From Opitutia bacterium (GTDB lineage: Bacteria; Verrucomicrobiota; Verrucomicrobiia; Opitutales; T3Sed10-336), in the NCBI GenBank assembly GCA_050506795.1, contig JBJHCF010000003.1:6380-70379 (forward strand): a DNA stretch of 64,000 nt, written 5' to 3'. Shown piece by piece: positions 1 through 62,900 of this stretch (position 1 is the first letter of the stretch; each line of letters starts with the position of its first letter). The translations under genes were made by a program, and so were the position numbers. Below the pieces are notes generated by a model, which did no database searches, was not told where the DNA came from, and saw only the letters and a list, made by a program, of their open reading frames with translations.

Positions 1-621
1 GGCGACGAGGCTTTTTTTTGGGCGGAACCGGGAGGTACCCCGCCGTTTGAATACGCATGGAGCAGAGACGGCGAGACACTTCCTGGGGCTGATGAAACGA
101 ATTACGTCATTTCCAGCGTCAACAGGGGAGATATCGGAGGATACCGCCTGGAAGTGCGAAACCCGGCCGGAATCGCACAAGGCGAGCCGATCCTTCTGGC
201 GGTTGTGACGCATTTCGAAGACTGGCTGGAAACGTATCAGGCGGAGTTGCCTGAGGGAGAGCGTGCTCCAGGGGACGATCCGTACAACACAGGGATTCCC
301 AACCTCCTTGCGTACTCTCTCGATCATCCGCCGGGCCTGTCCCGGAGTGACCTGCCTTTCGCTTCGGTTCATAGGCTGACTGTGGACGGCGTGGAGGGCG
401 ATTTTGTGACGTTTACTTTCACCCGAAGCATCGGAACCGATGACTTAATATATCATCCGGAAGTGTCGAGTGACATGGAAAGCTGGGATCCGTTGCCCCC
501 GGCGAACGTGGTCAGTATTGTCCGGGAGGGAAGCCGGGAGACCGTTACCGTCCGCGATGTTGCAATGATCGAGGAATTGAACCGATCACGGTTCTTTCGC
601 GTGAGATTGGAGAAGAAATAG
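1..621 (+). CDS. C-terminal part (5'-truncated by the window edge) of a secreted protein: Ig-like domain plus the recurring Verrucomicrobia-type C-terminal domain
   Basis: Frame 1 is open from base 1: GDEAFFWAEPGGTPPFEYAWSRDGETLPGADETNYVISSVNRGDIGGYRLEVRN, an Ig-like pattern (Y-x-W...G-x-Y). It ends with PNLLAYSLD...EVSSDMESW...RFFRVRLEKK. Confidence 0.8.
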   Translation, partial: GDEAFFWAEPGGTPPFEYAWSRDGETLPGADETNYVISSVNRGDIGGYRLEVRNPAGIAQGEPILLAVVTHFEDWLETYQAELPEGERAPGDDPYNTGIPNLLAYSLDHPPGLSRSDLPFASVHRLTVDGVEGDFVTFTFTRSIGTDDLIYHPEVSSDMESWDPLPPANVVSIVREGSRETVTVRDVAMIEELNRSRFFRVRLEKK

Positions 622-711
622 GCAGGAGAGTCCAGACCCACTCCGGATTCGGGTTTATCGTATCCGAAAGCCTAGATTGACTTTCTCGTCTGAAGCGGAG
701 TCTATAAAATC

Positions 712-1806
712 ATGACAAGTCGCGCTTTCCTTCTTTCGTTTCTGATTTTCGTCGCGGCTGTTTTTGCTGCCTGCCGGCATCATTACGTCGAGCATGGGCA
801 ACCGGTCGCGGTTCATTTGCACGAGTGGAGTGAACTTGCCGCGGATGGCTGGGTGGTTTCCGGAAGTTGGACTGTTGCGGATGATACCAGGGATCCGTGG
901 AGGCGGTTGGAAGGCGCCTTGTGGCGTATCGAACTGGAGTATTCCCCAGGCAGTAGTCGGATAGGGAGCCATTATCACCGATCGGCGGAGTGGAGGGAAA
1001 GGTTCTCGGTGGATACGGATGGCACCGCCCGGTACCATCAGGAAGCGTTTGCCATCACGTTCTTTCCGGACGGCCGGGCGGAGCTTGTGTTTGATGAGGA
1101 CCACCTGCAGGAACTGGGCGATTTGGTTCCCTTTGAGGACACCTTCCAAAACCGGAGCTACCTCGTTCTTAACAATCTTTCGCTGGACTCTATTCGTGCC
1201 CTGATCAGTGCCGGCTATCAGGTGACTTTTGAGGACCTGCAGGTGTTGCATCGTGGGGGGGTGAGTCCGGTTTTTGCGGTCGATATCGCCGCCGCGGGTT
1301 ACCGATTTTCGGTTGCCGACCTCGTCCAGTTGCGACGTAGTGGCGTCTCGGCGAGTTTTGCAAAAGACTTGCGGGAAGGAGGCTGGGAACTCACCGCCGA
1401 TGAATTGACGCAACTGCGGCGCTCTGGCGTTTCAGCGGATCATGCCAATGGGATGCGTGAAGTCCTCTCCGATCCGACCGTTCAGGAGATTATCGCGCTG
1501 CGGCGCAGCGGCGTTTCGGCCGGCTATGCCCGGGAACTGTACGAGGCGGGTTATGCTTTTGGCAGCGAGGATCTGATTGCTCTCCGTCGCTCCGGAGTGA
1601 GTTCTCAGTACGCGCGCGAGGTTCGGGACGCCGGATATATCTTTTCAGCGGAAGAATTGATAAGCTTGCGACGGGCAGGTGTATCATCCAGGTTCCTTGC
1701 CGACTTGCAGAGTGAAGGCATTCCTCAATATCCCGTGGAGTCATTAATCGAATTTCGGCGCCGCGGATTGTCGGCTCAGACAATTCGAATGATCAGGGAG
1801 CATTAG
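712..1806 (+). CDS. Putative lipoprotein with seven tandem ~28-aa helical repeats (L-R-R-S-G-V-S core)
   Basis: N-terminal hydrophobic stretch ending VFAAC (lipobox-like). The C-terminal half consists of 7 repeats such as FSVADLVQLRRSGVSASFAKDLREGGWE. Confidence 0.75.
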   Translation: MTSRAFLLSFLIFVAAVFAACRHHYVEHGQPVAVHLHEWSELAADGWVVSGSWTVADDTRDPWRRLEGALWRIELEYSPGSSRIGSHYHRSAEWRERFSVDTDGTARYHQEAFAITFFPDGRAELVFDEDHLQELGDLVPFEDTFQNRSYLVLNNLSLDSIRALISAGYQVTFEDLQVLHRGGVSPVFAVDIAAAGYRFSVADLVQLRRSGVSASFAKDLREGGWELTADELTQLRRSGVSADHANGMREVLSDPTVQEIIALRRSGVSAGYARELYEAGYAFGSEDLIALRRSGVSSQYAREVRDAGYIFSAEELISLRRAGVSSRFLADLQSEGIPQYPVESLIEFRRRGLSAQTIRMIREH

Positions 1807-2074: not shown

Positions 2075-2398
2075 ATGAAGAAAACACGTTGGACAGGATT
2101 AATCGCCAGTTTGCTATTGTTTTTGGGAGTTGCCGCGTATGGTGAAGAGAGGTCCGAGAGGATCGTCGTATCCCGGGAGGTCGTGGGCGAGGATGGCAGA
2201 GTTTTCGAATACGAAAGACCCGTCATAGGGGCTGACATTTCATGGGTCCCATCACAGGAAGACAGGGGGATGGTCTTTTCCGATAAGGGAGTCGAGAAGG
2301 ACGTGCTGGAGATACTCGCGGACAATAGGTTCAACTGGATAAGGCTTCGCCTGTTTGTCGACCCAACCGCGGAGAAGGTTTCAGTTTACGTGTTTTAG
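2075..2398 (+). pseudogene. Truncated GH53 endo-beta-1,4-galactanase (N-terminal fragment only)
   Basis: Signal peptide, then GADISW...KDVLEILADNRFNWIRLRLFVDP, the GH53 N-terminal signature. Homology stops at about 2378 and a stop follows 6 codons later; the catalytic glutamates are absent. Confidence 0.75.
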
Positions 2399-3902: not shown

Positions 3903-4319
3903 CTATTCCGGCTGGCCGGAGCCGACGAGGTAGATCATGCGCCAGATTTGAGCGGTGTCGCCGCGCTCGACGACCTGCATTGGACTGGCACCGTGAAAAC
4001 CTTTATTTGGAGTGCGAAGCCACGTGCCGATCGACCCTGGTTTCATGAGTTCCTCAAGGGCCTGGAGCAGGGAGCGCAACTCCCGGAGGGTCCGCATGGA
4101 AGCCGCACTGGTCTTTTTTCCGCTCGCCCAGTTTTCCACGGCACGCGGGGAATAGCCTGTCAGGCGGGTTATGTCCAGCCGGGTAAGACCGTAGCGGAGA
4201 CAAATCTCTCGAAGGTTAGGGGCAGCGCTTTCCCCGATTGCCGTTTCGTAAGCCGCCGTGATTTCCTCGACGCGGCCAGGGCGTTTCGCACGAGAATTCT
4301 TTCCCTTCGTTGATTTCAT
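3903..4319 (-). CDS. Xre/MbcA/ParS-type antitoxin (HTH + DUF2384-like C-terminal domain)
   Basis: HTH-like LTRLDITRLTGYSPRAVENWASG, then WLRTPNKGFHGASPMQVVERG, which matches the MbcA/ParS C-terminal pattern. ATG at 4319 chosen as start. Confidence 0.85.
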   Translation of the reverse strand: MKSTKGKNSRAKRPGRVEEITAAYETAIGESAAPNLREICLRYGLTRLDITRLTGYSPRAVENWASGKKTSAASMRTLRELRSLLQALEELMKPGSIGTWLRTPNKGFHGASPMQVVERGDTAQIWRMIYLVGSGQPE

Positions 4320-4380
4320 CCATCTACCGATACGACAGGTTTGCCGGCGGCGCAAGCTAAAATGCCTGCAGAAGTGCATA

Positions 4381-4983
4381 TCAATCCGGGCGAAGCCAGC
4401 GGTTCAATTCGACCGCATCCTCAATTTTTACCGTGCTGTCATTGCTCAGATTCTCGGGAGAGAAGGTCAGGGTGCGCGCACGATGATCCCGTGCGGACCT
4501 CGCAATCAACCCTTCAAATCCCAGGGAAAAGGTTGCCCGCCCAACCGCCTGAGAAAGGCATTCTTTCCCGGTGTCATTGAGACTGGCCCAATCTTCTCCG
4601 AGCAACTCGGCCCACTTTAACCAAGTTTCGTCCTCGGGGAGTTTGGCGAGATTACAAACCTTCGCAAGATTGACCCATATCGGAACAAGCATGTAAGCGC
4701 GGGCTTTTGACGGAGGCATCTGAAACCCTTCCTGCTTTCCGCGCGCTTCTTTTACTGCCAGAAGATCCGTTGAAGCACGAGAGACAGCTCGTTCCTCGCC
4801 GGGGGGCATCCAACGTCCGCCGTAGCGGCGTGTTCCCTGGCCGTTGAGAAGGGCTTCGGGGGACGCAAATTGTGGTGTCGCACACCGGAAGAAACGGCCC
4901 TCGGCTCGCTGCCGAGCTGTTTCCCGGTGCTTTTGGATTTCACGGCGAATCGCGTGAAATCGCGGATGGGGTTCCGTGGTCAT
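4381..4983 (-). CDS. RES-domain toxin (NAD+-targeting family), possibly degenerate
   Basis: FFRC...LLNGQG...GGRWMPPG...KE...GFEGLIARSAR...FSPENL, with R, E and S positions recognisable. Adjacent to an MbcA-type antitoxin. ATG at 4983. Confidence 0.85.
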   Translation of the reverse strand: MTTEPHPRFHAIRREIQKHRETARQRAEGRFFRCATPQFASPEALLNGQGTRRYGGRWMPPGEERAVSRASTDLLAVKEARGKQEGFQMPPSKARAYMLVPIWVNLAKVCNLAKLPEDETWLKWAELLGEDWASLNDTGKECLSQAVGRATFSLGFEGLIARSARDHRARTLTFSPENLSNDSTVKIEDAVELNRWLRPD

Positions 4984-5097
4984 AGGGTTTTTGTAATAAC
5001 ATGAAAGAGATTGGAGCGTAGAGGGAAGAAATCGGAGTGGCGAGTGGAACAACCCAAAGACATCGGTAACGGGGATCCTGGCTTTGCGCCGTGGGGT

Positions 5098-10185: not shown

Positions 10186-12993
10186 TCATGGTTCGGAATT
10201 AAGATTGTCCAGAGATTGGAAATACCGGCGGGCGGCATCCCGGTAACGTTCGGGCATGGGTTGCAGAAGAAGCGAGTCCCTGGGATCGGATACGGCAGCT
10301 TCGGCTTCGATCGCGGAACCCGTTTCGACGCGGGTGGCGCCCGTGCCGGACCCCGGACCTCCCGCGCCGTCCCTCCCGGTGGCGCCGGCGCCCTGATAGG
10401 CCAGCCCTTCGCGGGCGGGCGAGAATCCGCTGCGTTGCGGGCCGTAAACCGGCACGCCGAGAGGCGATCCCGGACCGCTCATCCAGGCGCCTTCGCCGCC
10501 CATCCCGGCGCCTCTGCCTCCGCCGATGCCGAAGCCGCGTCCCTGGCCCGGGGAGCCGGGCATCCCGCCGGAGCCGAGGAGCGAACTCAGCATTTGGGCG
10601 AGAGTCTGGTTGAGGTCGGGCAGGGTGAAATTCAGATTGCCTTCGCACATCCCGCCGAAGGCGCCGTCGGAGCATTGTTCGAGCAGGGATTCCAGACTCT
10701 CCAGCGCGCGGTTGGCATGGGTGAGCATGGCGCCGGGGCGGACCTCGCGTCCGGCTTCGGAGGCGTCCTCCATATCGACTGGAATTTGCAGGAGGTAGAT
10801 CAAGGTGGTCACCTCCATGGCGCTTTCCCGGAGAGAGTAGTAACGCGGCTCATTGGGCAGGGCGTCCACGGCGTCTTTGATGGCATGGGCCACGGATTCC
10901 AGTTCCTCGCGGAGGTCGTCCTGTGCCTCACCCAGGTCGCGGATGGTTTCCGTATCGACGCCGCCGGCGCGGTTGACCTCACGATCCATGTGACGCGTCA
11001 GGTCGCGCTGATTTTCCACCACGGCGGAAAGGCGGGCGGCGAGTTCCATCAACTCGTGAATCCGGTCCAGCGTTTCCGCGTCCTCCCGGAGGTTGTCCCA
11101 CTCCTCGTTCTCGGGCCCGTTCCAGCGCTCGCGCATGGCGGCCAGGGTTTCATCGGCTTGCGGGTCTCCGAGGTTCATCCGTCCCAGTTGTTCCTGCTGG
11201 GCGGCCAGGGCGTCGGCCGACTCCCGCCAGAGGGCGGCGGCGGTGCTCTCGATGTCGTAGGCGGGGAAATCGTCGGCCAGGGCATCCATGACGCCGCGCG
11301 CGTTCTCCATCGCCTCGGCAAGAGCGTCTTTCAGGGCTTGCAGTTCGGACTCGTCCGCGCCGTCCCGCATCGCTTCGCGCAGGGCGTCGATCGCTTCGGT
11401 GACGACTTCCAGGGCCAGGTGCGTCTCTTCCATCTTACGGACGAAGTCACGAATGGTCAGCTCGCTGCGGAGAAATTCGGCGTAGGTTTCCTCGTCGATG
11501 ATCTCCACGCGGACCAGGTTGGAGGTGACGGCGCCACTATCGGGATTGGTGTCGCGGGCCTGGGCGTAAAACTCGAGCACGTTGCCCGGTTCGGCTCCGA
11601 GACGGGCCAGGTCGATGCGTTCGTGGATAGGCAGTGCGGTTTCGGGCGCTGCCGGACCGAGGTGATGCGAACGGTCGCGAAAACGCCCCAGGCCCCGCCA
11701 GAGATCCACCCGGCGGATTCCGAGGTCGTCGCGGGCGTACCCTTCCAGATTGAGGACCGTCGACGGCGTGGCCAGGGAGTAGGCAGGCGGCTCGGTCAGG
11801 GCGATCTCCGGTGGATTGTCGGTCTGGGCCTTCTGGGTGAGTTGGAAAGGCTCGCGACTGCGGGTGCCGCGCAGGTCTTCCAGGATCACTTCGAGTTCGG
11901 CGTCGCTTTCCAGGAACCAACGAAAGCGCGCCGTGCTGCCTTCCAGAATCTCCGCCTGCACCGCACGGGTACCGTCCTCGTTGTGCAGGGTGAGGCGTCC
12001 GGTGGCGAGGGGACGATTACTGGCGACCGAGAGCGTGAACTCGGCGCCGGCGTGGCCCTCGATGACCTCTTCGCGCAGCAGGCGATCCGTGACCGGCAGG
12101 CGGGTGTAGGCGGGCGGTTCGGTGCGGAGGCGGGCCGCCAGGATGCGCGGTTCGTACTGCACCGGCAGTGTCATCCAGCGGGTACGGGCGCGACCGGTGG
12201 CGAAGGCGATCCGCATTTCTCCGGTGAGATTTTCCACTTCCTGTACAAACCGGCGTTCCGATTCCTGGAAACAGATCCGTTCGCTTTCTCCGCCAGGGCC
12301 GCGCAGGAGGAGCACCACCTGCTCGCGCAGTGGCGGACCGTGCACCTCCACTGCCAGTTCGGCGGTGTCGCCGTAATACACGGGCTCCTCCGGCAGGTGG
12401 AGGGTGAAATGGTATCGCGAATACGGAGGGTGGTCCTGCCACGGAAAGAGCACTCTCGGGTAGGTAGTGGAAAAAACCGGGAAGAGCAGCAAGCTGACCA
12501 AGGCCACACCGCAGGTACAGCAGAGTGCAAAGCGCATGCCCGATCGGGCGGACGGGTTGTACTGGATCCGCTTTTCCGGGTGGGCGTCCAGGATGCCGGC
12601 GCCTTCGTCCAGCAGGTGTTCGGACAGGTACCGTTTGAAAGGTGAGACCGAATCCCGGGCGAGTTCCTCTCGGGCCTGGAGGGAGGAAAGCACAGGATGC
12701 CGTCCGTCCGCCGTGCGGTCGGCGTAACGGGCGAAATCGGAAAGCGTGCGCGCGCGGTGGCGGGCGGTGAACCAGAGGATCGCCCCCAGGCAGAGCCCGG
12801 TCCAGACCAGGGCCAAGGTGCCGCGCGCGGCGGCCGGAAGGGCCAGCAGGGCGTCGATTGCGGCCAGCCCCAACCATCCGGCGAGAAACACACCGCCCAG
12901 CCGGAGGAGTGAACCGGCCAACAGACCGTTCACCCAGACTCGATGGAGGCGGGAGAGGAGGTCGGAAAACCGGTGGTGTGAGGTGTCGTTCAT
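10186..12993 (-). CDS. Membrane-anchored Ig-like/coiled-coil protein (DUF4175-like) typical of PVC MoxR-vWA operons
   Basis: Three N-terminal TM segments, beta-rich middle (PPAYTRLP, DNPPEIALTEP, ARDDLGI), long acidic coiled coil, Gly-rich linker and terminal MPERYRDAARRYFQSL. ATGA overlap with the upstream gene. Confidence 0.7.
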   Translation of the reverse strand: MNDTSHHRFSDLLSRLHRVWVNGLLAGSLLRLGGVFLAGWLGLAAIDALLALPAAARGTLALVWTGLCLGAILWFTARHRARTLSDFARYADRTADGRHPVLSSLQAREELARDSVSPFKRYLSEHLLDEGAGILDAHPEKRIQYNPSARSGMRFALCCTCGVALVSLLLFPVFSTTYPRVLFPWQDHPPYSRYHFTLHLPEEPVYYGDTAELAVEVHGPPLREQVVLLLRGPGGESERICFQESERRFVQEVENLTGEMRIAFATGRARTRWMTLPVQYEPRILAARLRTEPPAYTRLPVTDRLLREEVIEGHAGAEFTLSVASNRPLATGRLTLHNEDGTRAVQAEILEGSTARFRWFLESDAELEVILEDLRGTRSREPFQLTQKAQTDNPPEIALTEPPAYSLATPSTVLNLEGYARDDLGIRRVDLWRGLGRFRDRSHHLGPAAPETALPIHERIDLARLGAEPGNVLEFYAQARDTNPDSGAVTSNLVRVEIIDEETYAEFLRSELTIRDFVRKMEETHLALEVVTEAIDALREAMRDGADESELQALKDALAEAMENARGVMDALADDFPAYDIESTAAALWRESADALAAQQEQLGRMNLGDPQADETLAAMRERWNGPENEEWDNLREDAETLDRIHELMELAARLSAVVENQRDLTRHMDREVNRAGGVDTETIRDLGEAQDDLREELESVAHAIKDAVDALPNEPRYYSLRESAMEVTTLIYLLQIPVDMEDASEAGREVRPGAMLTHANRALESLESLLEQCSDGAFGGMCEGNLNFTLPDLNQTLAQMLSSLLGSGGMPGSPGQGRGFGIGGGRGAGMGGEGAWMSGPGSPLGVPVYGPQRSGFSPAREGLAYQGAGATGRDGAGGPGSGTGATRVETGSAIEAEAAVSDPRDSLLLQPMPERYRDAARRYFQSLDNLNSEP

Positions 12994-15197
12994 AACAGTC
13001 CGAGCCGGCGGCGGATGGCCCATTCGGTTCCGGCCAGGCCGACCAGCATAAGGAGGAGCCAGGAGGTGTCCCATCGCGTTTGCCAGGTGGCCTCGCCGCT
13101 GTCGGCGAGGGTCCCGGCGGGATCGCGCGCATCGGCATCCTGGATACGGAAGGTTTCATCGGCGGAGTAGGATGTTCCTCCGGTGGCCCGGGCCAGGCGG
13201 CGCAGGAATTCGTGATCGGCGCTCAGGTTGTCGCTTTCGGCCGCGGGCGGAACGACTTCCAGGTGGGCCGAGGCGGACGGGCCTTCGGCGCCCGGGGTGT
13301 GGACTTCGATCCGGTACAACCCGGGTTGGTCCAGTTCGAGGAAGGCCTGCCAGCGGTAATTTCCGCGGGTGACCGGCGACGCCCGGAAACGCCGAACCTC
13401 CTCGCTGCCGCGAATCACCGCGATGTTCGGTTCGGCGGCGGGCCCCGTGTCGTCTTCCCTTTCGGCCACAAAGAGACGGACCGATTCGCCCGCGCGGATT
13501 GTTGTTTGTCCGAGCCGAACGGCGTAATCCTGGCCGGGCAGGAATTCGTTGTAGGTGCTCGTCCACTGGATGAGCTGCGCCCAGAAATCCCGGTAGAATT
13601 CGCCCGCTTCCTCAAGTTGGGGAAAGAAATCCCATTCCCACAGCCCTTCCGCGTTTAGGGCCACGACCATGCCCTGGCCGAGCCGCCGCACCGCGAGCAA
13701 GGGGATGGGGGACCGACCGTTTCCTCCGTCTCCTTCCACCAGAACCTGGGCGAAGGAAGCCAGCCCTCCCACCCGGCGGACGCCGCCCAGTGAAGGAGTC
13801 TTATCCCAGAGCGGGTCGAGGTGTCCGGGCAGGCCATGACCGAACAAGCCCGCGCTTTCGCCGTGCAGCGTCGGCTGCCAACGGACGGCCGCGGTATGGA
13901 ATTCCCCCCAGGCGAAGGGTTGCAGACGCTCCAGGGACTCGTTTTCGCCCTGCCACGGTTTGCCCCGGGTGAAGAGCAGGGCGCCGCCGTGGTCGGCGAC
14001 GAAGCGGTGCAGGAGATCGGCGCGGGTTTCGTCGACGAAATACTCCACGCCTTTGCCGAAAAGCACGAGATCGTATCGGTTCAGTTCCTCCAGACTGGCG
14101 GGAAAGACCGCGGCCGATTCTTCGGTCAGTCCGGCCTCTTCCGCCCCGACGTGAAAGAACCGGTCGGCGGTCACGCGGTGCACGGTGGACAGCCGCACGT
14201 GGGCGGACTCGCGCAGGAGTTGCACGATGAATTTGGTGTCCCAGTGGGGCGAACCTTCCACCAACAGGACGTGCAAATCGCCCTCCAGCACCACCAGGCC
14301 GAGCGGGGCCTCGTTGTTGCTCAAACGGACCTCACCGGGCTGAGCCGGGCTGCGCAGACGGTACTCGTAGAAGCCCGGGTCGAATGGAGGGAGTTCGAAG
14401 GAAAAACCCGCTTCGCCTCCGTCGTCGAGCGTCACCCGTTGGCGGTCGACCACCTCCCCGGCGCCGTTCAGCAGTTCGATCTCGGGACGAAGAGGGCCGA
14501 GGCCGACGGCGCGGATGTGTCCCCGCACCACCGGACGCTGATCGTTAAAAACGGTGATGCGCCTGGGACGGGCGCGGATCTCCAGGTCGGGAACCTCCAC
14601 CTCCCCGCCGACGCCGTAGGTGTGAATCGGCGCGCCGGCTTCGCGGGCGCGCCGGATGGCCTCCGCCGGATCGGAGTCCGGGACTTCCCGGCCGTCGCCG
14701 GCCACCAGCACACCAAGCGGATCCACCGCTCCGGGAACGCGCGACCAGACCCGTTCCAGGGCGGCGGCGAGTCCGGTGCCGCCGGATTCCGCCAGCGGCG
14801 CTTCCGGCCAGGCGCCGTCGATGGGTTCCAGGTCCGAGGCATAGGTAAAACGGTAGACCGGGACGCCGTCGCTTTCGATCCGGCGCTCGGCGGCGGCCAG
14901 CCATTCTCGAGCCCGTTGGTAGCGTGTTTGGCCGTCCGCGTCGGGCACCGCCATGCTGGGGCTGCGATCGAGCAACAGGACCCAGGCGCCGGTCTGTTCG
15001 CTGGGACGCTCTTTCCACTGGCCCGGGTTCAGGGCGAGGACCAGAAGGAGAACGGCCACGGCGGCGCGCAGGGAAAACAGTCCGGCGCGGGCGAGCGGTT
15101 CCCGGCCGCGGGTGCTTCGCCAATTCAGGTAAAGCAGGACCGCGCCGCCGGCGATGGCCAGCGGGATGAGGTATTCCATGGGTATCAGAGGATTCAT
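12990..15197 (-). CDS. vWA-domain plus glutamine-amidotransferase-like membrane protein
   Basis: Two N-terminal TMs, MIDAS-like LLDRSPSM and AGDG, VLLVEGSPHWDTKF, LNRYDLVLFG, and a C-terminal TM (GLAGTEWAIRRRLGLL). ATGA overlaps on both sides. Confidence 0.8.
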   Translation of the reverse strand: MNPLIPMEYLIPLAIAGGAVLLYLNWRSTRGREPLARAGLFSLRAAVAVLLLVLALNPGQWKERPSEQTGAWVLLLDRSPSMAVPDADGQTRYQRAREWLAAAERRIESDGVPVYRFTYASDLEPIDGAWPEAPLAESGGTGLAAALERVWSRVPGAVDPLGVLVAGDGREVPDSDPAEAIRRAREAGAPIHTYGVGGEVEVPDLEIRARPRRITVFNDQRPVVRGHIRAVGLGPLRPEIELLNGAGEVVDRQRVTLDDGGEAGFSFELPPFDPGFYEYRLRSPAQPGEVRLSNNEAPLGLVVLEGDLHVLLVEGSPHWDTKFIVQLLRESAHVRLSTVHRVTADRFFHVGAEEAGLTEESAAVFPASLEELNRYDLVLFGKGVEYFVDETRADLLHRFVADHGGALLFTRGKPWQGENESLERLQPFAWGEFHTAAVRWQPTLHGESAGLFGHGLPGHLDPLWDKTPSLGGVRRVGGLASFAQVLVEGDGGNGRSPIPLLAVRRLGQGMVVALNAEGLWEWDFFPQLEEAGEFYRDFWAQLIQWTSTYNEFLPGQDYAVRLGQTTIRAGESVRLFVAEREDDTGPAAEPNIAVIRGSEEVRRFRASPVTRGNYRWQAFLELDQPGLYRIEVHTPGAEGPSASAHLEVVPPAAESDNLSADHEFLRRLARATGGTSYSADETFRIQDADARDPAGTLADSGEATWQTRWDTSWLLLMLVGLAGTEWAIRRRLGLL

Positions 15198-18063: not shown

Positions 18064-18067
18064 GACG

Positions 18068-19063: not shown

Positions 19064-19088
19064 GGATCGGTAATGGCAGGATTGACGG

Positions 19089-47890: not shown

Positions 47891-47905
47891 TACCCCCTTG
47901 TTATT

Positions 47906-48895: not shown

Positions 48896-49022
48896 TCCTG
48901 TTTATCGAACGCAAACCCAGCCGAAGTCGGGTGAAAGCGATTCTTTGTTGGTTCGAATAGGAATCTCCTGAAAACCACGCAAGCCAGGGAGTTAATATGA
49001 AGAAATGGAACATGAGCCCAGG

Positions 49023-49270: not shown

Positions 49271-49271
49271 G

Positions 49272-49595
49272 ATGCATTCCCCTCCGAGTATGCTTCGGCA
49301 GCTTTATGAGCAACAGCAGGCCTGCCGGCCCGAAGACATCAATGATGGGCGCGTCTACGGCCCCGATCTTGATTACGAGGAAGCCGACGAGCGGCCCGGC
49401 CCCTCCGCATGGATCGACGGAGAGTGGAAGTTACATCGCCGCGCTGGCGATCACTTGCTGTTCCACCTCGGCGACGATGAGGGGGAGCAAAACAACCTGA
49501 TTGATCGACACCCCGAGCGCGCTGAGCAAATGCGAATCGAACTCCACCAGTGGGAAGAATCGGTCATACGCAGCATGCGCGGCGAGGATTACTGA
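49272..49595 (+). pseudogene. Sulfatase C-terminal fragment
   Basis: AWIDGEWKLH...LLFHLGDDEGEQNNLIDRHPERAEQM...W...V..S..G.DY, a typical sulfatase C-terminus. Confidence 0.7.
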
Positions 49596-49928
49596 GTGAA
49601 TGTCATCGTGCTTCCCAGGCCGGATGCTGGGCATCTCGGCGCGCCGATATCGACCTTATCGGTCAGGAACAAAAGTCTGCCGCGAGTGAACCGCGAGGTT
49701 TCTTCGACTGGCTCAGCCTGCGGATTCCGATCGGCGGACGCATGCAAGGAAAGCAAACCTGCGAGGGTTTGAAGAGAACCGGACCACCGATGGAGCAAAA
49801 AGAACGATTCGCTGTAACGGCCGAGTCGGACTGATTCACGATCAGCGAGCTTTGCCGCCGCCGGGGAAGAAATTTTGTGGGAAACCTAGGGCTTTTTGGG
49901 CCTTTCCGAGTAGTCTGAACAGTGAAAG

Positions 49929-49963
49929 GTAGAGGGCCATTCACCCTTACGGATGAATGGCCC
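49929..49963 (+). repeat. GTAG-led palindrome (REP-like, family C; may also terminate the minus-strand gene ending at 49978)
   Basis: GTAG-A-GGGCCATTCA-N10-TGAATGGCCC, with perfect 10-bp arms. Confidence 0.55.
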
Positions 49964-49977
49964 GGGCCACACGGATT

Positions 49978-50109
49978 TTATTTTTTCTTCACCGCTGTTC
50001 CCGTTTGCTGAAAAAGGGCAAGGTGCTTTTTCCTCTTTTTCGCTTTTTTCGTTTTTGTCTGCTCATGCGCAGCCTTTTTATTGATCGCTTTCGGAGATTT
50101 GTCACCCAT
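49978..50109 (-). CDS. Small Lys-rich protein (43 aa, MGDKSPK...), in frame with the upstream gene
   Basis: GAAAGGAAA Shine-Dalgarno-like sequence immediately upstream of ATG 50109; strongly basic 43-aa product. Confidence 0.5.
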   Translation of the reverse strand: MGDKSPKAINKKAAHEQTKTKKAKKRKKHLALFQQTGTAVKKK

Positions 50110-50757
50110 GTCTAATTTCCTTTCGTGTCTTGTTGTGTTGGTTTGTGTTGCCGTTTCATCCGGCAAGATTTTCACGTTTGTCTCAAGTCTCGTTCCATTG
50201 AGACTTCCGGCTGGGGTAAGATTCTTCATCCATGACCCCGCTCCCACCGTTCGAACATCTTCGATTGTGTAAAAGGGAACGGGTTGCAGGGACCTGATAA
50301 ACTTCAAAAGATCCTTTAGTCTGCGGCGCTCGGATACTATCAGAAATATCTCAACGCCTCCCTTGGATCCGGCCGCCTGAACCGAGGTAACACCATAGGA
50401 TCTCTCGCTGAGTCCCTGCAACAATCCCGAAGACCCTCCAACGGTTATGACACGAACGATCTGGTACCCTAATGCCAGTTTTTCTTCAATCAACATGCCA
50501 ACGTACGTACCCGCCGAGACGCCTCCAGCCCAGGCAATGAAACACGCCCAGTTGTTAAGGTTTTGCATGACCTGGGTGATTGCGATGAGCCAAATGCTTA
50601 CCTCAATGAATGCCAGGCCCGGAACCAATAGTCGAAATCCTTTGTAGATTAGAATTTGGCGTAATGTTGCCAGGGTCACATCGATAAGCCTCGCAAAGAA
50701 TATCAAACCGGGCATCAAAACCCAGGAGATGTAGTCGAAATTGAAAAAGGAATCCAT
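49978..50757 (-). CDS. DUF2179/DUF5698 (UPF0316-like) membrane protein, reading through into the small Lys-rich ORF
   Basis: LIFFARLIDVTLATLR...FIEVSIWL...GTYVGMLIEEKLALGYQIVRVIT...GVTSV.A.GSKG.V...FYTIEDVR. Confidence 0.85.
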   Translation of the reverse strand: MDSFFNFDYISWVLMPGLIFFARLIDVTLATLRQILIYKGFRLLVPGLAFIEVSIWLIAITQVMQNLNNWACFIAWAGGVSAGTYVGMLIEEKLALGYQIVRVITVGGSSGLLQGLSERSYGVTSVQAAGSKGGVEIFLIVSERRRLKDLLKFIRSLQPVPFYTIEDVRTVGAGSWMKNLTPAGSLNGTRLETNVKILPDETATQTNTTRHERKLDMGDKSPKAINKKAAHEQTKTKKAKKRKKHLALFQQTGTAVKKK

Positions 50758-50991
50758 CGATGCTTTATGCAAAACCAATAATGAAGAATCTATTTCCGGC
50801 TAATCTAAGAAACCGGTGACCGCATAACCTATCTTCAGGTGGATAGTTCAGGAACCACCTGAATACCGTCACCCTACAGGTATTAAGAGCACAATGCCTC
50901 AACGCTCGAGGGCTGACTCATGAAGACCATCAAGCGGCCATGAGCCTGCACCTCCAGTCCGCGGCACCTGAGTGCCGATAGACAGGCGAAT

Positions 50992-51345
50992 GTGCGCCAG
51001 CGCGAGTGAATTAGCGTAATTCCGGTTCGAGCCGGAAAGTGGGGAAGGTGGCCCGATGATCTCAGGGGAGGGTGCAATTGGAGCGTAACACCCTCGCTGC
51101 CGCGATCATCGGGATAGCGGAAGGAAGATCAAACTGAACGCTCCGTGAACAAGCCGATAAAGAATAAACAGCGATAAACTCATTCGAATTATGATTTTAT
51201 CCCTTTCGTCTCGTATGTCAAATGGAAAGATGATCGATTTACCGAATGTATGGTGTTTGGTCGGGGTGAAGATTCAAAGTCTTCCATAAGCCCGCAGGTG
51301 TGGCGTTGATCTGGCCGCCGTTGTGTAGAATTCAATACCCAACGC
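50992..51345 (+). mobile_element. Probable 5' fragment (domain I) of a group II intron, IIB-like; ORF and domains V/VI absent
   Basis: Starts GTGCG. Nested hairpins TTCCGG-TTCGAG-CCGGAA and CCCGATGATC...GAGGGTG...CACCCTC...GATCATCGGG, followed by GCGGAAGGAAG, CTGAACGC, AAGCCGATAAAG and CATAAGCCC, which I recall from chloroplast-like bacterial group IIB introns. Not verified by a covariance model. Confidence 0.55.
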
Positions 51346-51352
51346 ATCCCCC

Positions 51353-51839
51353 TTAGTCCGGCGGCGGACCGACCTCAATCTCCACTTCCGTTCTCTGCCC
51401 GGCCTGCAACGACACGTTGCGGTAGCTCACCCAGCGGAAGGGCCGCGTTTGAAGGATCACGGATTCGAGTTCATCGAGAGGGATTGTAAAAGGGTAAGAT
51501 GGAGGGATTGATACGTTCCGCACCTTGGACCGCGCTTGATCCCACATCGTTACCCCGCGAATCCGCTCTCACCCCGTCCGTCTCAATTGCAACCTCCACG
51601 GGCCCCGTCTCCACCGCATGCACGACCGGGTTGACCGTTTTTACCTGCACAACCGACCAACCGGGCAACACAAGCGACAACACCGGCAACGCCAGCACAC
51701 CCGCCACCGCAGCGGTCCAGACCAGATGCCGCGCCGCCGCCGAACTTTTCCGCATACCAAGGACCGCGACCGATGCGACAGACAGGATAACGGCACCCTT
51801 AATCAGAATATCGAAAAAGAAAAAAGTCAGGTTTTGCAT
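51353..51839 (-). pseudogene. Internally deleted M56/BlaR1-type membrane sensor-peptidase
   Basis: N-terminal ILIKGAVIL...RKSSAAARHLVWTAAVAGVLALP (M56 N-terminus) joins out of frame at about 51550 to a C-terminal piece (PFTIPLDELESVILQTRPFRWVSYRNVSL). HExxH domain absent; lies downstream of a BlaI gene. Confidence 0.8.
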
Positions 51840-51885
51840 GGGAGACCCGGGTTAAGTGACACTCGCGATAAATTCATCCTTCCGC

Positions 51886-52293
51886 TCAGTTTCCTTTGCG
51901 TTCGGCCTCCTCGATCATCTTTTTGAGGCGCTGCAGTTCTTCTTCGGAAACACCCGCATTCTTCTGGGCCAGGTAGGCGCCGACCGCGTTTTCAAGCGAG
52001 CCGTCGAAGAACGTTTCGAGAACGCGCTGCAGCGCGGACCGTCCCACCCGGACGCGTTCGGCGCGCGGACTGTACACGTGCTCGCGACCCGCCTTGCGGC
52101 GTTTGACCAGCCCCTTGTCGCCAAGGATCTTCAACATCGTCCTCACCGCGGTGTGCGCCGGCGGATCGGGCAATGCGGGTTGAAGTTCGTTCACACTGAC
52201 CTCGCCCCGCACGTAGAGAAAGTCCATGATCTGGCGTTCTCGCCGGGTCAAGTGGAGATGCGTGTCGGATTTGGAGGAGACCGATTTTTTCAT
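51886..52293 (-). CDS. BlaI/MecI/CopY family transcriptional repressor
   Basis: LTRRERQIMDFLYVRGEVSVNEL...AVRTMLKILGDKGLV...HVYSP...VLETFFDGSLENAV. Confidence 0.93.
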   Translation of the reverse strand: MKKSVSSKSDTHLHLTRRERQIMDFLYVRGEVSVNELQPALPDPPAHTAVRTMLKILGDKGLVKRRKAGREHVYSPRAERVRVGRSALQRVLETFFDGSLENAVGAYLAQKNAGVSEEELQRLKKMIEEAERKGN

Positions 52294-52296
52294 TTC

Positions 52297-52351
52297 GCCA
52301 AAGTTTTAGCGAACATGGCGGAATATCAACACAAAATGCTAAATTTTTAGC
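52297..52351. promoter_or_regulatory. Pair of 14-bp inverted repeats GC(T/C)AAA-N2-TTTAGC, candidate BlaI-family operator
   Basis: GCCAAAGTTTTAGC at 52297-52310 and GCTAAATTTTTAGC at 52338-52351, immediately upstream of the repressor start. Confidence 0.6.
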
Positions 52352-57158: not shown

Positions 57159-57346
57159 TCCCGGACGAAACGTTTTATCGAGTATGTTCGGGTTCTTCGG
57201 AATCGGTTGGACGGCACTCTCTTTCGGGTTTAGGAGTGTCAGGGAATCCGAACGCAATGTTGCCGTTATTCATATCCGGTTCGATCTCATGTCGGCGCCT
57301 GCAGGTCCCGGGCACGGAGTGCCGCCGAGAAGCGATTCTTTCGAAG

Positions 57347-59914
57347 GTGACGAGGCCCGGATGTTTTTTGGCGGTGCTCCTCCTGATAATCGCCCTAGCC
57401 GGAATCGCTGACGCCGACGAAATTTCCCCGCCTGATCAGGTATTCGCCGGACACCATGCACCGGTTTCCACGGTGGACTTTTTTCCGGATGGTGAAACGC
57501 TGCTGACCGCCGGATTCGATGGTGTTGCCCGCCTGTGGAGCCGAAGCGGCGGCGACCCGATTCACGTTCTAACCGGGCATGACGGTTGGATCCATTCGGC
57601 CGCGATCTCAGGCGACGGCAGGCGGCTGGCCACCGGAGGGGCGGACGGTTCGATCCGGCTTTGGGATGCGGAATCCGGTGAGGTTGTGCGAATCTTTTCG
57701 GCGCCCTGGGGAGCCGTGACCGCGTTGGCGTTCTCGCCGGGTGGCGAAGGGCTGGCGAGCGGGAGTTCCACTGGCGCGACCACGATTTGGAGCGTCTCGA
57801 ACCAAGAGCCGGTGCGATCGTTTGGCGGGGGCGGAGGCGCGGTGAGTTCATTGGCATTTGCTCCTGACGGAATTCGAGTCCTGGCCGGGGACTGGGAAGG
57901 CGGAGTCCGCCTCTGGGATACGGCGACCGGGGGGCTGATCCGGGAGTTTCGAGGACACACCGGAGCGGTGACGTCGGCGACCTTCTGGCCGAGCGGAGCA
58001 AGTGTGTTGACGGGAAGCCTGGACGGCACCGCGCGTTTCTGGCAGGTTGCCACCGGGGAGGAAATCCGGCGATTTCAGGCCGGCGCCCCGGTATCGGCCG
58101 CCACCTTGTCGGCGGCGCAAACGATTGTAGTCACGGCCACCATGGAGGGCTCGGTTCGTATTTGGAATTTGGCGACGGGAGCGGCGATCAACACCTGGCC
58201 GGCCCACGACGCGGCAATCGGCTCGGCGGCAATGTCTCCCGACGGCATGCGTCTGTTGACCGGAGGAGGTGAGGGCACGGCCCGTTTATGGCGGACGTTT
58301 CCAGTGGGATACGCGGTGCAGGTTCTGGAGACGCCGTCATTTGGTGAGAATATCGTCGGCGAGCAGGAGACCGGGGTTGTGCGTTTGCGCAACGCCCTGA
58401 CGACGCCGATCGATCTGCGATGGGGAACGCTTCCGGAAGGCTTCACCATTTCGGGGGATCTGCGCTCCCTGGCGCCGCGTGAGACACGTGAGTTTACGCT
58501 CAGGTTTACCCCGCGCAGGGAAGGGTTGCAAACGGGACCCCTGGTTTTGTCGGCTTCCAATCTGTCGGGCTCCAAAACGATTGTTCTTTCCGGTGAAGGT
58601 GTATTGTATCGTCCGATACACACGATGGAAACGCAGACCCAACCCGTGCATGCGGCGGATTTATCGGTTGACGGAAAGTTTCTGATCACCGGAGGCGCGG
58701 ATCGTACCGCGGTTGTGCGCGAAACGCAAAGCGGCGAAGTCCTGGCCTTGCTTCCCGGCCACGGGGCAACGGTTCAGGCCGCGGCGCTTTCAGCGGACGG
58801 CCTTTTCGCCGTCTCCGGTAGCGGTCAGGGCCGGATTTACCTGTGGGATTTGGAAGACGGGCCGGTGGCAGAGCCGACCAGGAGTTTCAGCGGGCATTTC
58901 GGGGCGATTTATACGGTGTCTATTTCTCCCGACGGCCGGCGTTTTGTCACCGCGGGCTGGGACAATACCGTCAGACTCTGGTGTCGCGAAAGCGGAGATT
59001 TGGTGCATGCGTTTTCGGGGCATACCCGTCAGGTGATTTCGTCTGCATTTTCTCCCGACGGGGGCCTGGTGCTCACCGGATCGGCCGATTCCACGGCTCG
59101 CTTATGGAACGTGGAATCGGGCGGATTGGTGCAGGCATTTTCTCCGGGCGTCGGCCGGATCAATGCCGTGGTGTTCTCGCCTTGCGGGCGGCGAATTCTG
59201 ACCGGAGGGAGTGACGGCGCTGCGAGGTTGTGGTCGGTGGAAACCGGAGAGTTGCTCTTGAGCTTTGCCTACGGCGAGGGGTGGGTGGTTTCGGCGGCCT
59301 TTTCCGACGATGGGAGATGGATTCTTACCGGGCATCTGGATGGGCGGGCGCGGTTGGTTGACGCCGTAAACGGAGATCTTCTGCGTACCTTTCCGGCCAC
59401 CGGAACGGCGGTGCGCCTGGTCCGTTTTTTTCCGGGGAGTTCGCGGGTTTTTTTCCTGGGCAATGATGGCCGGGCGACGATCTGGTCAACGGTGGTGGAT
59501 TTCCCGATCACTTTCGGTGAATGGGTCGAGGCGTTGCCGCCCGGGAACGATGCGCGCCCTGGAGGCCGACCACCCGGAAGGCGACTGGCGAACCTGGTAA
59601 GGTACGCTTTGGGACACCAGGCCGACCGGGCGGAGGAGGGATTGTTGCCGGAGGTGACCAGGGGTGATGACGGGGCGGTGATTTTTGAATTCGATCGCCT
59701 GGCCCGCCGCCCCGATACGTCGATCAGCCTTGAAGTGTCGAATGATCTGAATACCTGGGAAACTGTCGCGTTGGCGGTGGGACTCGGTCCGTTTCTCCCC
59801 ACGGGAGAGGGAGGAGTCACTGTGATTGGAGACCTCCGAGAGAGGAGGGTTCTTGTGGTCGACGAACACCCGTATCGTCGGGCCTTCCGCTTGGTCGTGC
59901 GCCTGGAAGAGTAG
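57347..59914 (+). CDS. Secreted WD40 protein: two 7-bladed propellers separated by an Ig-like domain, plus the recurring C-terminal domain
   Basis: 14 GH..WD-type units counted (7+7); central FGENIVGEQETGVVRLRN...LRFTP; tail NLVRYALG...LEVSNDLNTW...RAFRLVVR. The ORF track opens at 57236; GTG 57347 gives a signal peptide. Confidence 0.85.
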   Translation: MTRPGCFLAVLLLIIALAGIADADEISPPDQVFAGHHAPVSTVDFFPDGETLLTAGFDGVARLWSRSGGDPIHVLTGHDGWIHSAAISGDGRRLATGGADGSIRLWDAESGEVVRIFSAPWGAVTALAFSPGGEGLASGSSTGATTIWSVSNQEPVRSFGGGGGAVSSLAFAPDGIRVLAGDWEGGVRLWDTATGGLIREFRGHTGAVTSATFWPSGASVLTGSLDGTARFWQVATGEEIRRFQAGAPVSAATLSAAQTIVVTATMEGSVRIWNLATGAAINTWPAHDAAIGSAAMSPDGMRLLTGGGEGTARLWRTFPVGYAVQVLETPSFGENIVGEQETGVVRLRNALTTPIDLRWGTLPEGFTISGDLRSLAPRETREFTLRFTPRREGLQTGPLVLSASNLSGSKTIVLSGEGVLYRPIHTMETQTQPVHAADLSVDGKFLITGGADRTAVVRETQSGEVLALLPGHGATVQAAALSADGLFAVSGSGQGRIYLWDLEDGPVAEPTRSFSGHFGAIYTVSISPDGRRFVTAGWDNTVRLWCRESGDLVHAFSGHTRQVISSAFSPDGGLVLTGSADSTARLWNVESGGLVQAFSPGVGRINAVVFSPCGRRILTGGSDGAARLWSVETGELLLSFAYGEGWVVSAAFSDDGRWILTGHLDGRARLVDAVNGDLLRTFPATGTAVRLVRFFPGSSRVFFLGNDGRATIWSTVVDFPITFGEWVEALPPGNDARPGGRPPGRRLANLVRYALGHQADRAEEGLLPEVTRGDDGAVIFEFDRLARRPDTSISLEVSNDLNTWETVALAVGLGPFLPTGEGGVTVIGDLRERRVLVVDEHPYRRAFRLVVRLEE

Positions 59915-59983
59915 GGGGCGTCCGGCGATGGAGTGGTTCGGGATTCGGGGATCGCGTTGCCCGGTCCGGTCAAAGGGAGGCGG

Positions 59984-62900
59984 TCAATTCTTCTCCAGGC
60001 GAAGACGAAGGAAGTAAGGCTCCGGCGATTGGACCGGATCGGCCAATCGGAAACGGACCGTGCGTACGGTCGGGTTCTCTTGCAGGGTTTCGGTTTGGCC
60101 TTCCGCCGGCTCCCAGGACTGGAGGTCTGTGGAGGCTTCCACGTGAAAAGTAATATCGGTGGCTGCTTTCAGGCGGGTGTAATCGATATAGGGATAGGAC
60201 TCGCCTTTTTCGACCAGAATGCCCGCCCGGGGCAGCGAGGCGGACAGCGGCGCCGACGGATCGAGGCCGAGCGCGTATCGCATTAGATTGGGGACTCCCC
60301 GGTCGCCTGGGTCGGCCATGGGCCCGAACTGTTGCGGGTTCTCCATGGCATCCGTTCCGAACGCATTGCGCGCCCAGTCGTCGTAGTGTATTGCATGAAT
60401 CGATACGTTAGCGGAAATCAGGTAGTCGATTCGACCCGTGTCCCAGTTATTGACTCCCACCCACCAGACTCCGGGTTCGGGGTGCAAGAACTGGCAGAAC
60501 TCCTCCTGGACGCCGGCGAGAAAGGGACGGCAATCAAAGGAATTGAGATCGGGCTTTTCCCCCTTGCGGACGTAGAGGTCGGCGTCACCGCTCAAACCCG
60601 CCAGAACAACCTCCAATTGTCCCGCCTGCATGTGGGGGACCTCGACCCGGTAATACTTCCAGTCGTACTGGCGTTCCCGGCCGGTGATAAAATCCGCACG
60701 AACCGATCCCGGAGCGAGGGTTGTCGGTTCGACACCGGCCTGCTCAACGGTCAGCAGGACACGGCCGCCGGCGCTGATGGTGGCCGTGCGGGGCAGTGCG
60801 CTCCCCTGGTGGGCGGCCGCGCCGTAAATGACGTCGGTGCTGCCGCTTCCGCTGCGCGGGGTGAGGAACAGGAGCCAGTCGGCGCTGCTTTCGAGGCTCC
60901 ACTGGCAATTGGTCAGCGAGCTTTCCAGCCGGGCCGTGAAGTAGCCGCCTTGTGAAGGCAGGGTCACCGTGCCCTCGCCCAGGGTGAAGTGGCAAGCCGG
61001 TTCGACTTCGAACACCTCCGGCAATTCGATTGAATCTCCGTCCGGGGAGAACAGTTCCAGATTCCACTGTCCGGCGGGCGCGGCGTAGAGATCGAAGCGG
61101 GCGGTGATGACGGACGGGGTGACCTGAATGCCGAATCCCTCCGCCGCGCCACCTTGCGGGCCGGTGAGGCGGAGGTTGGTTCCCGGCAGAAATCCGGCGC
61201 CATGAATTTCCACCACGGCCACTCCGTTGTTGGGTGCGGACTGAGGTTCGATGAAGTCGACCTGGGTGACGGTCGTTTCGGCTGCGTCCACGGAGGCGCC
61301 GGTGACGATGAGGGAATAGATTTGCTCGGATCCCGGCTGCGCCTCGTCATATTCCACCCGCACGGTATAGGTTCCATTTTGGGGTTCGGGAATGTCGACC
61401 CGAAGAGTGTTGTCGACATGGTTTCTGCCGGTGGTGGCCGGCGCCGCCGGATTGGCGGGGTCGAGGCGAAAGGGGTGATGCCGGAAAGATCCGTCGGGCG
61501 AGAGAAGCGACAGGTGAAGATTATTCACCAGGGTGGGCGAACGCTGATCCGTTTCGGATACCGGCCCGGTCGGCGGGGGATCCGTCCAGGAGAGGGTTGC
61601 CAGGATGGGGGAGTCTTCGTCCCAGGTTACCCGGTATTCCCGAGCCGGCCGTGAGGAGGTAAGCGAATCTTCGATGAACACCCGGCTTCGGGGAGAAGCG
61701 GCGTAGCGACGCACGATGGCGGCCGCGGCTTCGGTATTGATCAATCCCCATCCGTAACGGTAGTCCGGGCCCGGATTGCCGAGATCGTCGGCGGAGTGGA
61801 TCAAAAGGGCTTTGAGTGTGCTCGCTCGGGGGGCATGTCCCGGGAAATACTCCCGGTAGAGCTCGGTTAGCAGCGCGAGTGACCCGGTGGTGGCCGGAGC
61901 CGCCATACTGGTACCGGAGGCCCGACCGTACCAGCCGTCGAGGGCCACCGGAGAAAGCACGCCGACACCGTGAGCGACCAGATCGGGCTTGATGCGGCCG
62001 TCGTCGGTGGGTCCCCAGGAACTGAACGCCGTCATTCTGGCGTCGAATCGACCGCTCCGCTGGGAGGCGGGGAGAAAGTCGATGGCGCCAACGGTAAGGA
62101 CGTTCTTGGCGATCTGATAGGAATTTACGGTGTCGAAACCCCGCTTGTAGACCGCGTCTCCCGGCGGATGCAACTCGGGGTCGTAGGGAACGACTCGATC
62201 GTTGATCAGGACCGGATCTCCTTTTCGAGGATCGCCGGAGCGGTGGTTGCCGGCCGCCCACACGGAGAGCAGGTAGGGCGAAGAATGAGCCAGCACGTCG
62301 GTGAGGTAGGCGAACTCGTCATAACGGCCGAACCGGTCGTGGCCGGTGAACACGAAGGCGTTGCGTTCGCCGAGGAAAACCCAGCCCGCGACCAGTCCGT
62401 AGGAATGATTGGCCAGGGAGATGGTGCCGGGTTCTCCGGGGTAAAACGGAGCCCGGCCGGCCATTTCGGCGAGCGCCTGGTTCCAGTCATAACCCTCAAT
62501 CGTGGCCTGCGGCGCCACTCCGGTCGCCGGGGCGTGAGTGCCGCGGGCGGCGATGGTGCCGGCAACGTGGGTGGAATGGTGTGAAAAGAAAGGCGCACTG
62601 TGGTGATTGATAACGCGTCCGCGGTCGAATTCGCTATGGCTGGCGAGGATCCTGGCTTCGTCCCAAACGCCGACATGCACCCCTTTGCCGGTGGCTGAAA
62701 AACGACCGGGGCCGAGAATCGGGCGGGATCGGACCGATTGCGCTGCGACGGCGTTGAAGGTGGTTCGGTATAACGGCACACCGTTTTCAAAGGCCACCAG
62801 TTCGAGGGTGCGCCCGTCGTTGTCGACCGTACGGGCGGGGAATCCGCGGCGCCGGGCTTCCTCGCGGGCGGCGGCCTCGCGGTGCAGGCTGTATTCACGC

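Follow-up and report, generated by a model that had tools for sequence, protein, structure and literature searches.

A C-terminal module on unrelated secreted proteins of Verrucomicrobiota as a candidate localisation tag

We have found that four proteins with unrelated domains, all encoded in a 64,000-nucleotide stretch of DNA from an Opitutia bacterium (contig JBJHCF010000003.1, positions 6,380 to 70,379; the window hereafter), end in homologous copies of a module of ~130 residues, and that this module stands for a very large family that is absent from Pfam and NCBIfam. Judging from its sequence, the module is a strong candidate for a protein-localisation tag, a role that we infer rather than observe. 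Verrucomicrobiota are abundant polysaccharide degraders of soil, freshwater, ocean and guts, and the way in which they place their many large enzymes and adhesin-like proteins at the cell surface or outside it is largely unexplained. The tail is present on roughly one gene in ten in the window and, if it is a phylum-wide tag, it would allow the surface and secreted proteome to be predicted from sequence, would give a handle on the machinery via phylogenetic profiling and could be used as a fusion tag for protein display.

Homologous tails on unrelated cargo

The original prediction, made from the letters of the window alone, had proposed that a tail of ~125 amino acids (aa) is common to an immunoglobulin-like (Ig) protein, a repeat protein, a WD40 protein and an S8 protease, and that a fifth protein ends in a shorter version of it. 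The five open reading frames (ORFs) and their translated tails lie where it had placed them. Pairwise BLASTP between the tails always aligned them at the extreme C-terminus, with E-values of 2.6e-11 for Ig versus S8, 2e-6 for WD40 versus S8, 3e-5 for WD40 versus Ig and 2e-4 for the repeat protein versus S8. As a non-circular test, a profile was built from eight metagenomic relatives, none of them from the window, and this independent profile scored the S8 tail at 77.1 bits, the Ig tail at 66.8, that of the repeat protein at 48.8 and that of the WD40 protein at 25.7 (E=5e-23 to 3e-7), while ~1,000 composition-matched shuffled tails reached at most 5.9 bits. According to these sequence comparisons the four tails are homologous. 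No further copy of the module was detected in any other window ORF when the ORFs of all six frames were searched.

The cargo that precedes each copy is different. Copy 1 (202-621, plus strand; deep profile E=9.9e-35, profile positions 2-139) ends a large Ig/BACON protein whose gene runs off the start of the window, so that only its C-terminal 206 residues lie inside (1-621, plus strand), with an Ig-like domain immediately before the module (1-201, plus strand; Pfam Ig_2, E=8e-5). A full-length record of this protein (P0020, 1564 aa), with a C-terminus identical to the window fragment, contains DUF6242 and BACON domains and has a signal-peptide-like start. Copy 2 (21732-22109, plus strand; E=9.3e-27 with the deep profile) closes a 699-aa repeat protein (20010-22109) formed, in its translation, by a signal peptide and ~5 beta-rich repeats of ~100 aa (20010-21731, plus strand; Y_Y_Y-like match, E=1e-6); its N-terminus (P0019) reads MNITFPGPAAVALFAFALLATPPAALA. 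Directly upstream of this gene, and divergent from it, there is an operon (10186-19150, minus strand) for a MoxR AAA+ ATPase, a DUF58 protein and a BatA/von Willebrand factor A (VWA) protein (Bat-type aerotolerance-like) together with two large proteins that match no family. Copy 3 (59507-59914, plus strand; deep profile E=1.4e-22) follows a signal-peptide-like segment, two WD40 propellers and a choice-of-anchor-D-like middle domain (57236-59506, plus strand). The propellers are recognised by Pfam WD40 at E=1.7e-100 with 12 repeats, and residues 368-439 give a sub-threshold match to NCBIfam choice-of-anchor D (choice_anch_D; 27.9 bits, cutoff 45). The start codon of this protein is uncertain, and its orthologue P0021 begins at the ATG at 57257. 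Finally, copy 4 (59984-60397, minus strand; deep profile E=8.9e-42) is the C-terminus of a 1095-aa S8 subtilase (59984-63271) in which a signal peptide, an S8 peptidase domain (Peptidase_S8, E=1.5e-33) and a PPC domain (E=1.4e-13) occupy 60398-63271 on the minus strand, and whose N-terminus is MFGRRHFFLVLTLALAAAASLL.

All five tail proteins have a hydrophobic, signal-peptide-like N-terminus, as had been proposed for four of them, with the reservation that the Ig protein is incomplete in the window and that its start is known from P0020. None of the five has a C-terminal transmembrane (TM) segment, which the original prediction had likewise stated for four. The cargo domains are recognised by Pfam and NCBIfam (Ig, WD40, S8 and PPC), and neither database has a family that matches the tail, in the window proteins or in canonical relatives.

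The module family

The most conserved columns among 316 aligned copies were W5 (94%), G24, N27, L28, Y31, A32, S79, D81, L82, W85 (98%), F122 and R124 (98%), and the motif that had been read from the window copies (F/Y2, W5, N27-L28, Y31-A32, E77, S79, D81-L82, W85, F122, R124 and R126) corresponds to the most conserved columns of the family. An AlphaFold2 model of the S8 tail had a mean predicted local distance difference test score (pLDDT) of 91.9 and a predicted template-modelling score (pTM) of 0.82, and a second model, obtained for a canonical relative with an 88-sequence alignment, showed the same topology (pLDDT 90.6). The predicted order is a first helix with F/Y-x-x-W, a loop, a second, short helix with N-L-L-E-Y-A-L-G-x-D-P and a six-stranded fn3/Ig-like beta-sandwich, the last strand of which, R-F-L-R-L-R-V, is followed by merely 2-4 residues before the C-terminus. 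In the family consensus the 12-residue loop has the exact EF-hand/TSP3 spacing D-x-D-x-D-G-x-x-N-x-x-E. This Ca-type loop is intact in roughly half of the family. Because its liganding positions are only 48-75% conserved (per-column frequencies in the 316 copies) and are lost in every window copy, that of copy 2 being the most degenerate, Ca2+ binding looks optional. The helical/loop half and the beta half occur together in 115 of the 120 module ORFs described below.

Foldseek searches of the Protein Data Bank (PDB) with both models returned generic sandwiches, namely fn3, Ig, CBM21 and CBM29 domains and accessory beta-sandwiches of glycosidases, with best E-values of 4e-3 and 3e-2 and TM-scores of at most 0.45, and the fold is therefore uninformative on function. 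A sequence search of the PDB with the family profile gave nothing relevant. Faint, sub-threshold traces of DUF3999, F5_F8_type_C (discoidin), TSP3_bac, MtsD and Amuc_1099 appeared in the Pfam and NCBIfam scans, the last three spanning just the ~30-residue loop-helix. The characterised carbohydrate-binding module (CBM), discoidin and fn3 families gave no significant sequence match and no specific fold match, and none of the characterised CBM or Ig families matched the tail.

An exhaustive profile search over 1.84 billion representative proteins yielded 10,760 clusters (50% identity) at E<=1e-3 and 1,157 at E<=1e-10. Furthermore, when species-representative genomes were scanned with a single conserved peptide pattern, at least 517 matches were confirmed, the best 80 of which were used for taxonomy. 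Of the 79 loci so obtained, 77 are labelled as Verrucomicrobiota or its lineages (Opitutaceae, Akkermansiaceae, Verrucomicrobiaceae, Terrimicrobiaceae and Chthoniobacterales), the other two being one Lentisphaerae bin and one unclassified entry. The restriction to Verrucomicrobia that had been suggested is thus essentially borne out among the sampled species-representative genomes. In total, 120 module-bearing ORFs lie in the 1.2 Mb that these loci cover, 41 of them in the flanks (~1 per 29 kb), and the window has four full modules in 64 kb. We found no description of the module in the literature on Verrucomicrobia sorting signals, the NLLEYA motif, choice-of-anchor domains or DUF1559.

The position of the module is overwhelmingly terminal. 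It ends within 5 residues of the stop codon in 111 of 119 ORFs and in 35 of the 40 unseeded copies of the flanks, and in 147 of the 165 best-scoring proteins a copy lies no more than 15 residues from the C-terminus. In 56% of module proteins the C-terminal residue is Pro. Internal copies amount to ~5-12%, and the module is therefore not found internally as often as at C-termini. Two to five tandem copies are present in 57 of the 165 best-scoring proteins, a share that is enriched by the score ranking, and at a few loci 200-1700 residues extend beyond the module. In one family (P0022, P0027 and P0048) three to five tandem modules are followed by a conserved ~300-aa domain that ends in PYQP, shows 55-65% identity between members and has no Pfam match.

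Module ORFs have more hydrophobic N-termini than their neighbours (median 2.13 versus 1.10); a hydrophobic N-terminus was seen in 66 of 98 full-length members and a lipobox-like motif in only two. The cargo comprises S8, WD40, Ig, Calx-beta, trypsin, cyclophilin, LTD, discoidin, FGE-sulfatase, beta-lactamase and FG-GAP domains, as well as RCC1/LamG, DUF5122 propeller, PATR and GH141 types, and with dozens of unrelated types the module is independent of its cargo.

The fifth protein, of 261 aa (45440-46225, minus strand), consists of a signal peptide and a ~170-aa "choice-of-anchor"-type domain (45656-46225, minus strand) followed by a beta-sandwich-only variant of the module (45440-45655, minus strand) that ends in RFYRVRVE. 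Its tail matches only positions 61-137 of the module profile, with an E-value of ~0.01 that is marginal for a hidden Markov model (HMM) search. However, when 16 beta tails of its family were compared with the module alignment by hhalign, the probability was 97.3% (E=2.7e-11), which identifies the tail, on sequence grounds, as a genuine reduced homologue that retains the beta half only; the "shorter version" of the original prediction is accordingly a true relative. Beta-only tails were also considered as a common variant among the relatives of the module and were rejected, as both halves are present in nearly all of the ORFs (115/120). The cargo domain is itself widespread in a family search of its own, with labelled relatives in an Opitutales metagenome-assembled genome (MAG), in planctomycete MAGs (Phycisphaeraceae and Lacipirellulaceae) and in proteobacterial MAGs (Betaproteobacteria, Burkholderiales and Usitatibacter).

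Beginning 47 bp downstream of the fifth-protein gene there is a gene for a ~340-aa protein (44361-45392, minus strand) that, from its sequence, has a signal peptide, ends in RVQVSYSF and is probably an outer-membrane beta-barrel, and a YceI gene (46248-46955, plus strand) is divergent from the fifth-protein gene. This trio is kept in the same arrangement in orthologous contigs (L081-L083), where the position of the partner is taken by a gene for 299-326 aa, one with a weak OMP_b-brl match, and the divergent YceI gene is maintained. The partner is context of the fifth protein and not part of the module.

Known sorting systems and the role of the module

The C-terminal slot that the module occupies is filled on homologous cargo by PEP-CTERM or other tails. 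In the cargo family of the fifth protein this slot holds PEP-CTERM-like ends in 33 of 121 members, RTX-like repeats in 11 and the beta tail in 17, besides dockerin-type and other tails, and one relative (P0263) joins the same cargo to a full module (E=1.2e-31). Similarly, 26 members of the Verrucomicrobiota PATR and LamG cargo clusters (1 and 7) end in the module, and among 10 complete PATR/LamG paralogues without it six end in a textbook PEP-CTERM and four in neither. PEP-CTERM has been documented in Verrucomicrobiota (10.1101/2023.06.07.544157), and at the loci studied here 23 PEP-CTERM ORFs and 120 module ORFs occur, both kinds on the same contigs and never together in one ORF. The module therefore takes the place of a known sorting signal in a "choice-of-anchor" pattern. 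The sub-threshold match of the WD40 protein's middle domain to choice-of-anchor D, a family defined by name through alternative C-terminal anchors, agrees with this picture of anchor swapping. The analogy to PEP-CTERM is positional only: both use the same slot on homologous cargo in the same genomes in a mutually exclusive way, but PEP-CTERM is a ~25-residue motif with a TM helix and a basic tail, whereas the module is a 130-residue soluble folded domain without TM segment. In fact, hydropathy averaged over 18 residues does not exceed 1.39 within the last 40 residues, and the PEP-CTERM pattern is absent from all 120 module ORFs.

A close parallel in properties is the type IX secretion system's C-terminal domain (T9SS CTD), for which we rely on published descriptions (PMC4804311, PMC5445135). 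Like the module, for which the sandwich is predicted, it is a cargo-independent, Ig-like C-terminal sandwich of Sec-exported proteins, is phylum-restricted and occurs in many copies per genome, and the machinery, putative in the case of the module, is encoded elsewhere. The module differs in having an extra helix/TSP3-like-loop/helix subdomain and in its Verrucomicrobiota host, the T9SS having been reported only in Bacteroidetes (PMC5445135). The module is terminal in 93% of ORFs and 88% of flank copies, as a T9SS CTD would be, yet occasional tandem arrays of 2-5 and internal copies also exist. The Por_Secre_tail models (TIGR04183/PF18962 and type B) matched neither window proteins nor canonical relatives at E<=1, no T9SS CTD structure was among the top 50 fold matches of either Foldseek search, and none of PorK/L/M/N, Sov and PorU/V was found in the window or at the 79 loci.

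Dockerin (PF00404) and bacterial TSP3 repeats (PF18884) likewise combine a D-x-D-x-D-G loop of Ca type with a helix after it, mostly at the C-terminal end of secreted enzymes of diverse kinds, and the docking logic of dockerin is similar to the one that we consider for the module. However, the module has one loop instead of two, degenerate in about half of the members and fused to a beta-sandwich. Dockerin membership was rejected, there being no PF00404 match at E<=1 and only a 7-9-bit motif likeness to planctomycete dockerin-like segments, and TSP3_bac gave a single faint sub-threshold match (E=0.013) in one of eight relatives. A ~30-residue DxDxDG..NLLEYA..DP loop-helix is likewise present in the Amuc_1099 family pilus-like system protein (NF042425). 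Membership in this family was rejected as well, since four of eight relatives scored 12-17 bits against a cutoff of 50 and the likeness is at motif level, covering 30 of 321 profile positions within 107-157. By the tests run, the module is not a member of the PEP-CTERM, dockerin or Amuc_1099 families nor, by sequence, of the T9SS CTD family, and it is probably not a TSP3 repeat.

As the original prediction had it, the machinery is not in the window, where no secretion or sortase genes were found, and clustering of neighbours across the 79 loci revealed no conserved secretion, sortase or translocon gene. Two apparent neighbour families at these loci proved to be antisense low-complexity artefacts. 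Prepilin-type genes (N_methyl plus DUF1559) were often adjacent to module genes: of 14, ten have a same-strand module gene no more than 200 bp away. The median gap is 34 bp, whereas random points give ~3 kb, and the share within 500 bp is 71%, with 12% expected (binomial p ~4e-7, relatedness ignored). These cases (loci L013, L014, L020, L033, L034, L045, L052, L053 and L068) show both gene orders and span at least three cargo clusters and ~9 contig sources. Since such a neighbour is present for only ~8% of module genes and no function for DUF1559 was found in the searchable literature, the adjacency is a lead and not a mechanism.

The idea of a sorting or attachment signal put forward in the original prediction is supported in part: it gains from cargo independence, C-terminal bias, signal-peptide-like N-termini, phylum restriction and swapping with PEP-CTERM. 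Tandem and internal copies, which are unlike T9SS CTDs, count against a pure export tag, no machinery was identified, and the observations do not favour export over anchoring. Our preferred form of it, held tentatively and at a little under an even chance, is that the module is a surface-retention module acting by non-covalent docking to the envelope. The cargo proteins would cross the inner membrane through Sec by means of their N-terminal signal peptides, and the folded C-terminal module would then attach by non-covalent docking to some conserved envelope component of verrucomicrobial cells, so that proteases, WD40 and other propellers, PATR adhesin-like repeat proteins, glycosidases and cyclophilins would be retained or positioned there. 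The module would fill on paralogous cargo the role of the PEP-CTERM/exosortase signal, and the beta-only tail of the fifth protein may be a reduced form of the same device. We favour docking because of the tandem and internal copies, because the module is a stably folded unit in which the Ca-type loop is optional, and because of the lack of an evident terminal cleavage logic; tandem copies and domains placed after the module are more in keeping with a folded unit for binding or docking than with a secretion tag that is cleaved off. Several points weigh against this proposal. The single, strictly terminal copy of most proteins suits an export signal equally well, the swapping with PEP-CTERM is positional equivalence and not equal function, no partner or ligand for the module was identified, and the fold search gave generic beta-sandwich matches only. 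Furthermore, other phyla of the Planctomycetes-Verrucomicrobia-Chlamydiae (PVC) group may carry the module, as the taxonomy comes from the best 80 of at least 517 matches to one pattern.

The main and serious rival is an outer-membrane export signal resembling the T9SS CTD, which we regard as possible though doubtful. The sandwich would be recognised in the periplasm by a translocon, possibly one of type II secretion system (T2SS)-like or pseudopilin-based kind, and may be cleaved afterwards. Such a signal would agree with the T9SS hallmarks seen here (a predicted Ig-like sandwich at the C-terminus of proteins with a Sec signal, independence of the cargo, many copies and phylum restriction), with the ~90% of copies that end within 5 residues of the stop, the highly conserved last strand and the frequent terminal Pro (56%), and with the DUF1559 prepilin-type genes that adjoin module genes. 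However, modules in arrays of 2-5 or followed by 200-1700 residues could not act terminally when internal, neither Por_Secre_tail nor a T9SS CTD was matched by sequence or among the top 50 folds, and no translocon gene is conserved near the 79 loci, where DUF1559 neighbours reach only ~8% of module genes. Related to export is a quite unlikely scheme in which the module would be the cargo-side docking element of an undescribed envelope pathway of Verrucomicrobiota, perhaps of the wider PVC group too, with DUF1559/H-X9-DG prepilin-type proteins, a very large family, forming a pseudopilus or fibre that exports or displays tagged proteins, that is, T9SS-CTD-like tagging built on type II/type IV pilin-like parts. 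It would explain the same-strand adjacency of DUF1559 genes and the loop-helix motif in common with the Amuc_1099 pilus-like protein.

Two further explanations dispense with sorting and agree less well with the swapping and the cargo spectrum. An ordinary lectin- or CBM-like ligand-binding or substrate-targeting domain, bound to an environmental polymer and terminal only incidentally, seems unlikely to us. In its favour, the fold resembles fn3, CBM21, CBM29 and accessory glycosidase sandwiches, with faint sequence echoes of discoidin and DUF3999 strands, and tandem copies (as in CBMs), the Ca-type loop and some glycosidase cargo point the same way. Against it, none of those fold matches is significant or specific, about half of the copies, among them all window copies, have a degenerate loop, and a large part of the cargo (WD40, cyclophilin, beta-lactamase, S8 and PATR) does not act on carbohydrates. 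Moreover, substrate binding leaves the strict alternation with PEP-CTERM on homologous cargo unexplained, and the terminal bias of ~90% is much stronger than is usual for CBMs. A structural cap or an aid to folding that has no partner, be it an intramolecular chaperone or an end-domain that stabilises the protein, appears highly improbable, even though the most conserved residues, mostly aromatic or aliphatic, probably belong to the core, no partner was found, and secreted peptidases can bear C-terminal extensions of beta-sandwich type such as PPC, the S8 protein of the window having a PPC domain as well. The cargo consists of structurally unrelated proteins that fold without the module in other phyla, the module is interchangeable with a membrane sorting signal, and R124 (98%) and the polar E-x-S-x-D face are conserved. 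A generic stabiliser would hardly account for the phylum restriction.

Remaining gene content of the window

The other genes of the window are ordinary and include sdhCAB, cysC/D/N, the MoxR-DUF58-BatA operon and ThuA-type enzymes; no tRNA genes and no Rfam matches were found in it. A RES-domain protein (4381-5052, minus strand) adjoins a protein with an Xre/MbcA/ParS-type antitoxin C-terminal region (3903-4379, minus strand), and together (3903-5052) they are a probable RES-Xre toxin-antitoxin pair. In the 107-aa ORF at 2075-2398 (plus strand) the match to glycoside hydrolase family 53 (E=2.7e-10) is confined to the first ~54 positions of that family, and the ORF looks like a truncated gene remnant. 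A sulfatase ORF (47906-48895) covers only profile positions 146-300 of 301, its N-terminal catalytic part being missing, and the 48-52 kb interval has the lowest G+C of the window (0.54), several small ORFs without family match and a BlaI/MecI-type repressor (51886-52293); the region 47558-52300 may be a decayed or inserted segment. Finally, two divergent paralogous fusion proteins (27507-31462) combine 3-keto-disaccharide hydrolase and ThuA domains, one of them also with a discoidin domain, and are flanked by GFO/IDH/MocA oxidoreductases in what looks like a sugar-oxidation cluster.

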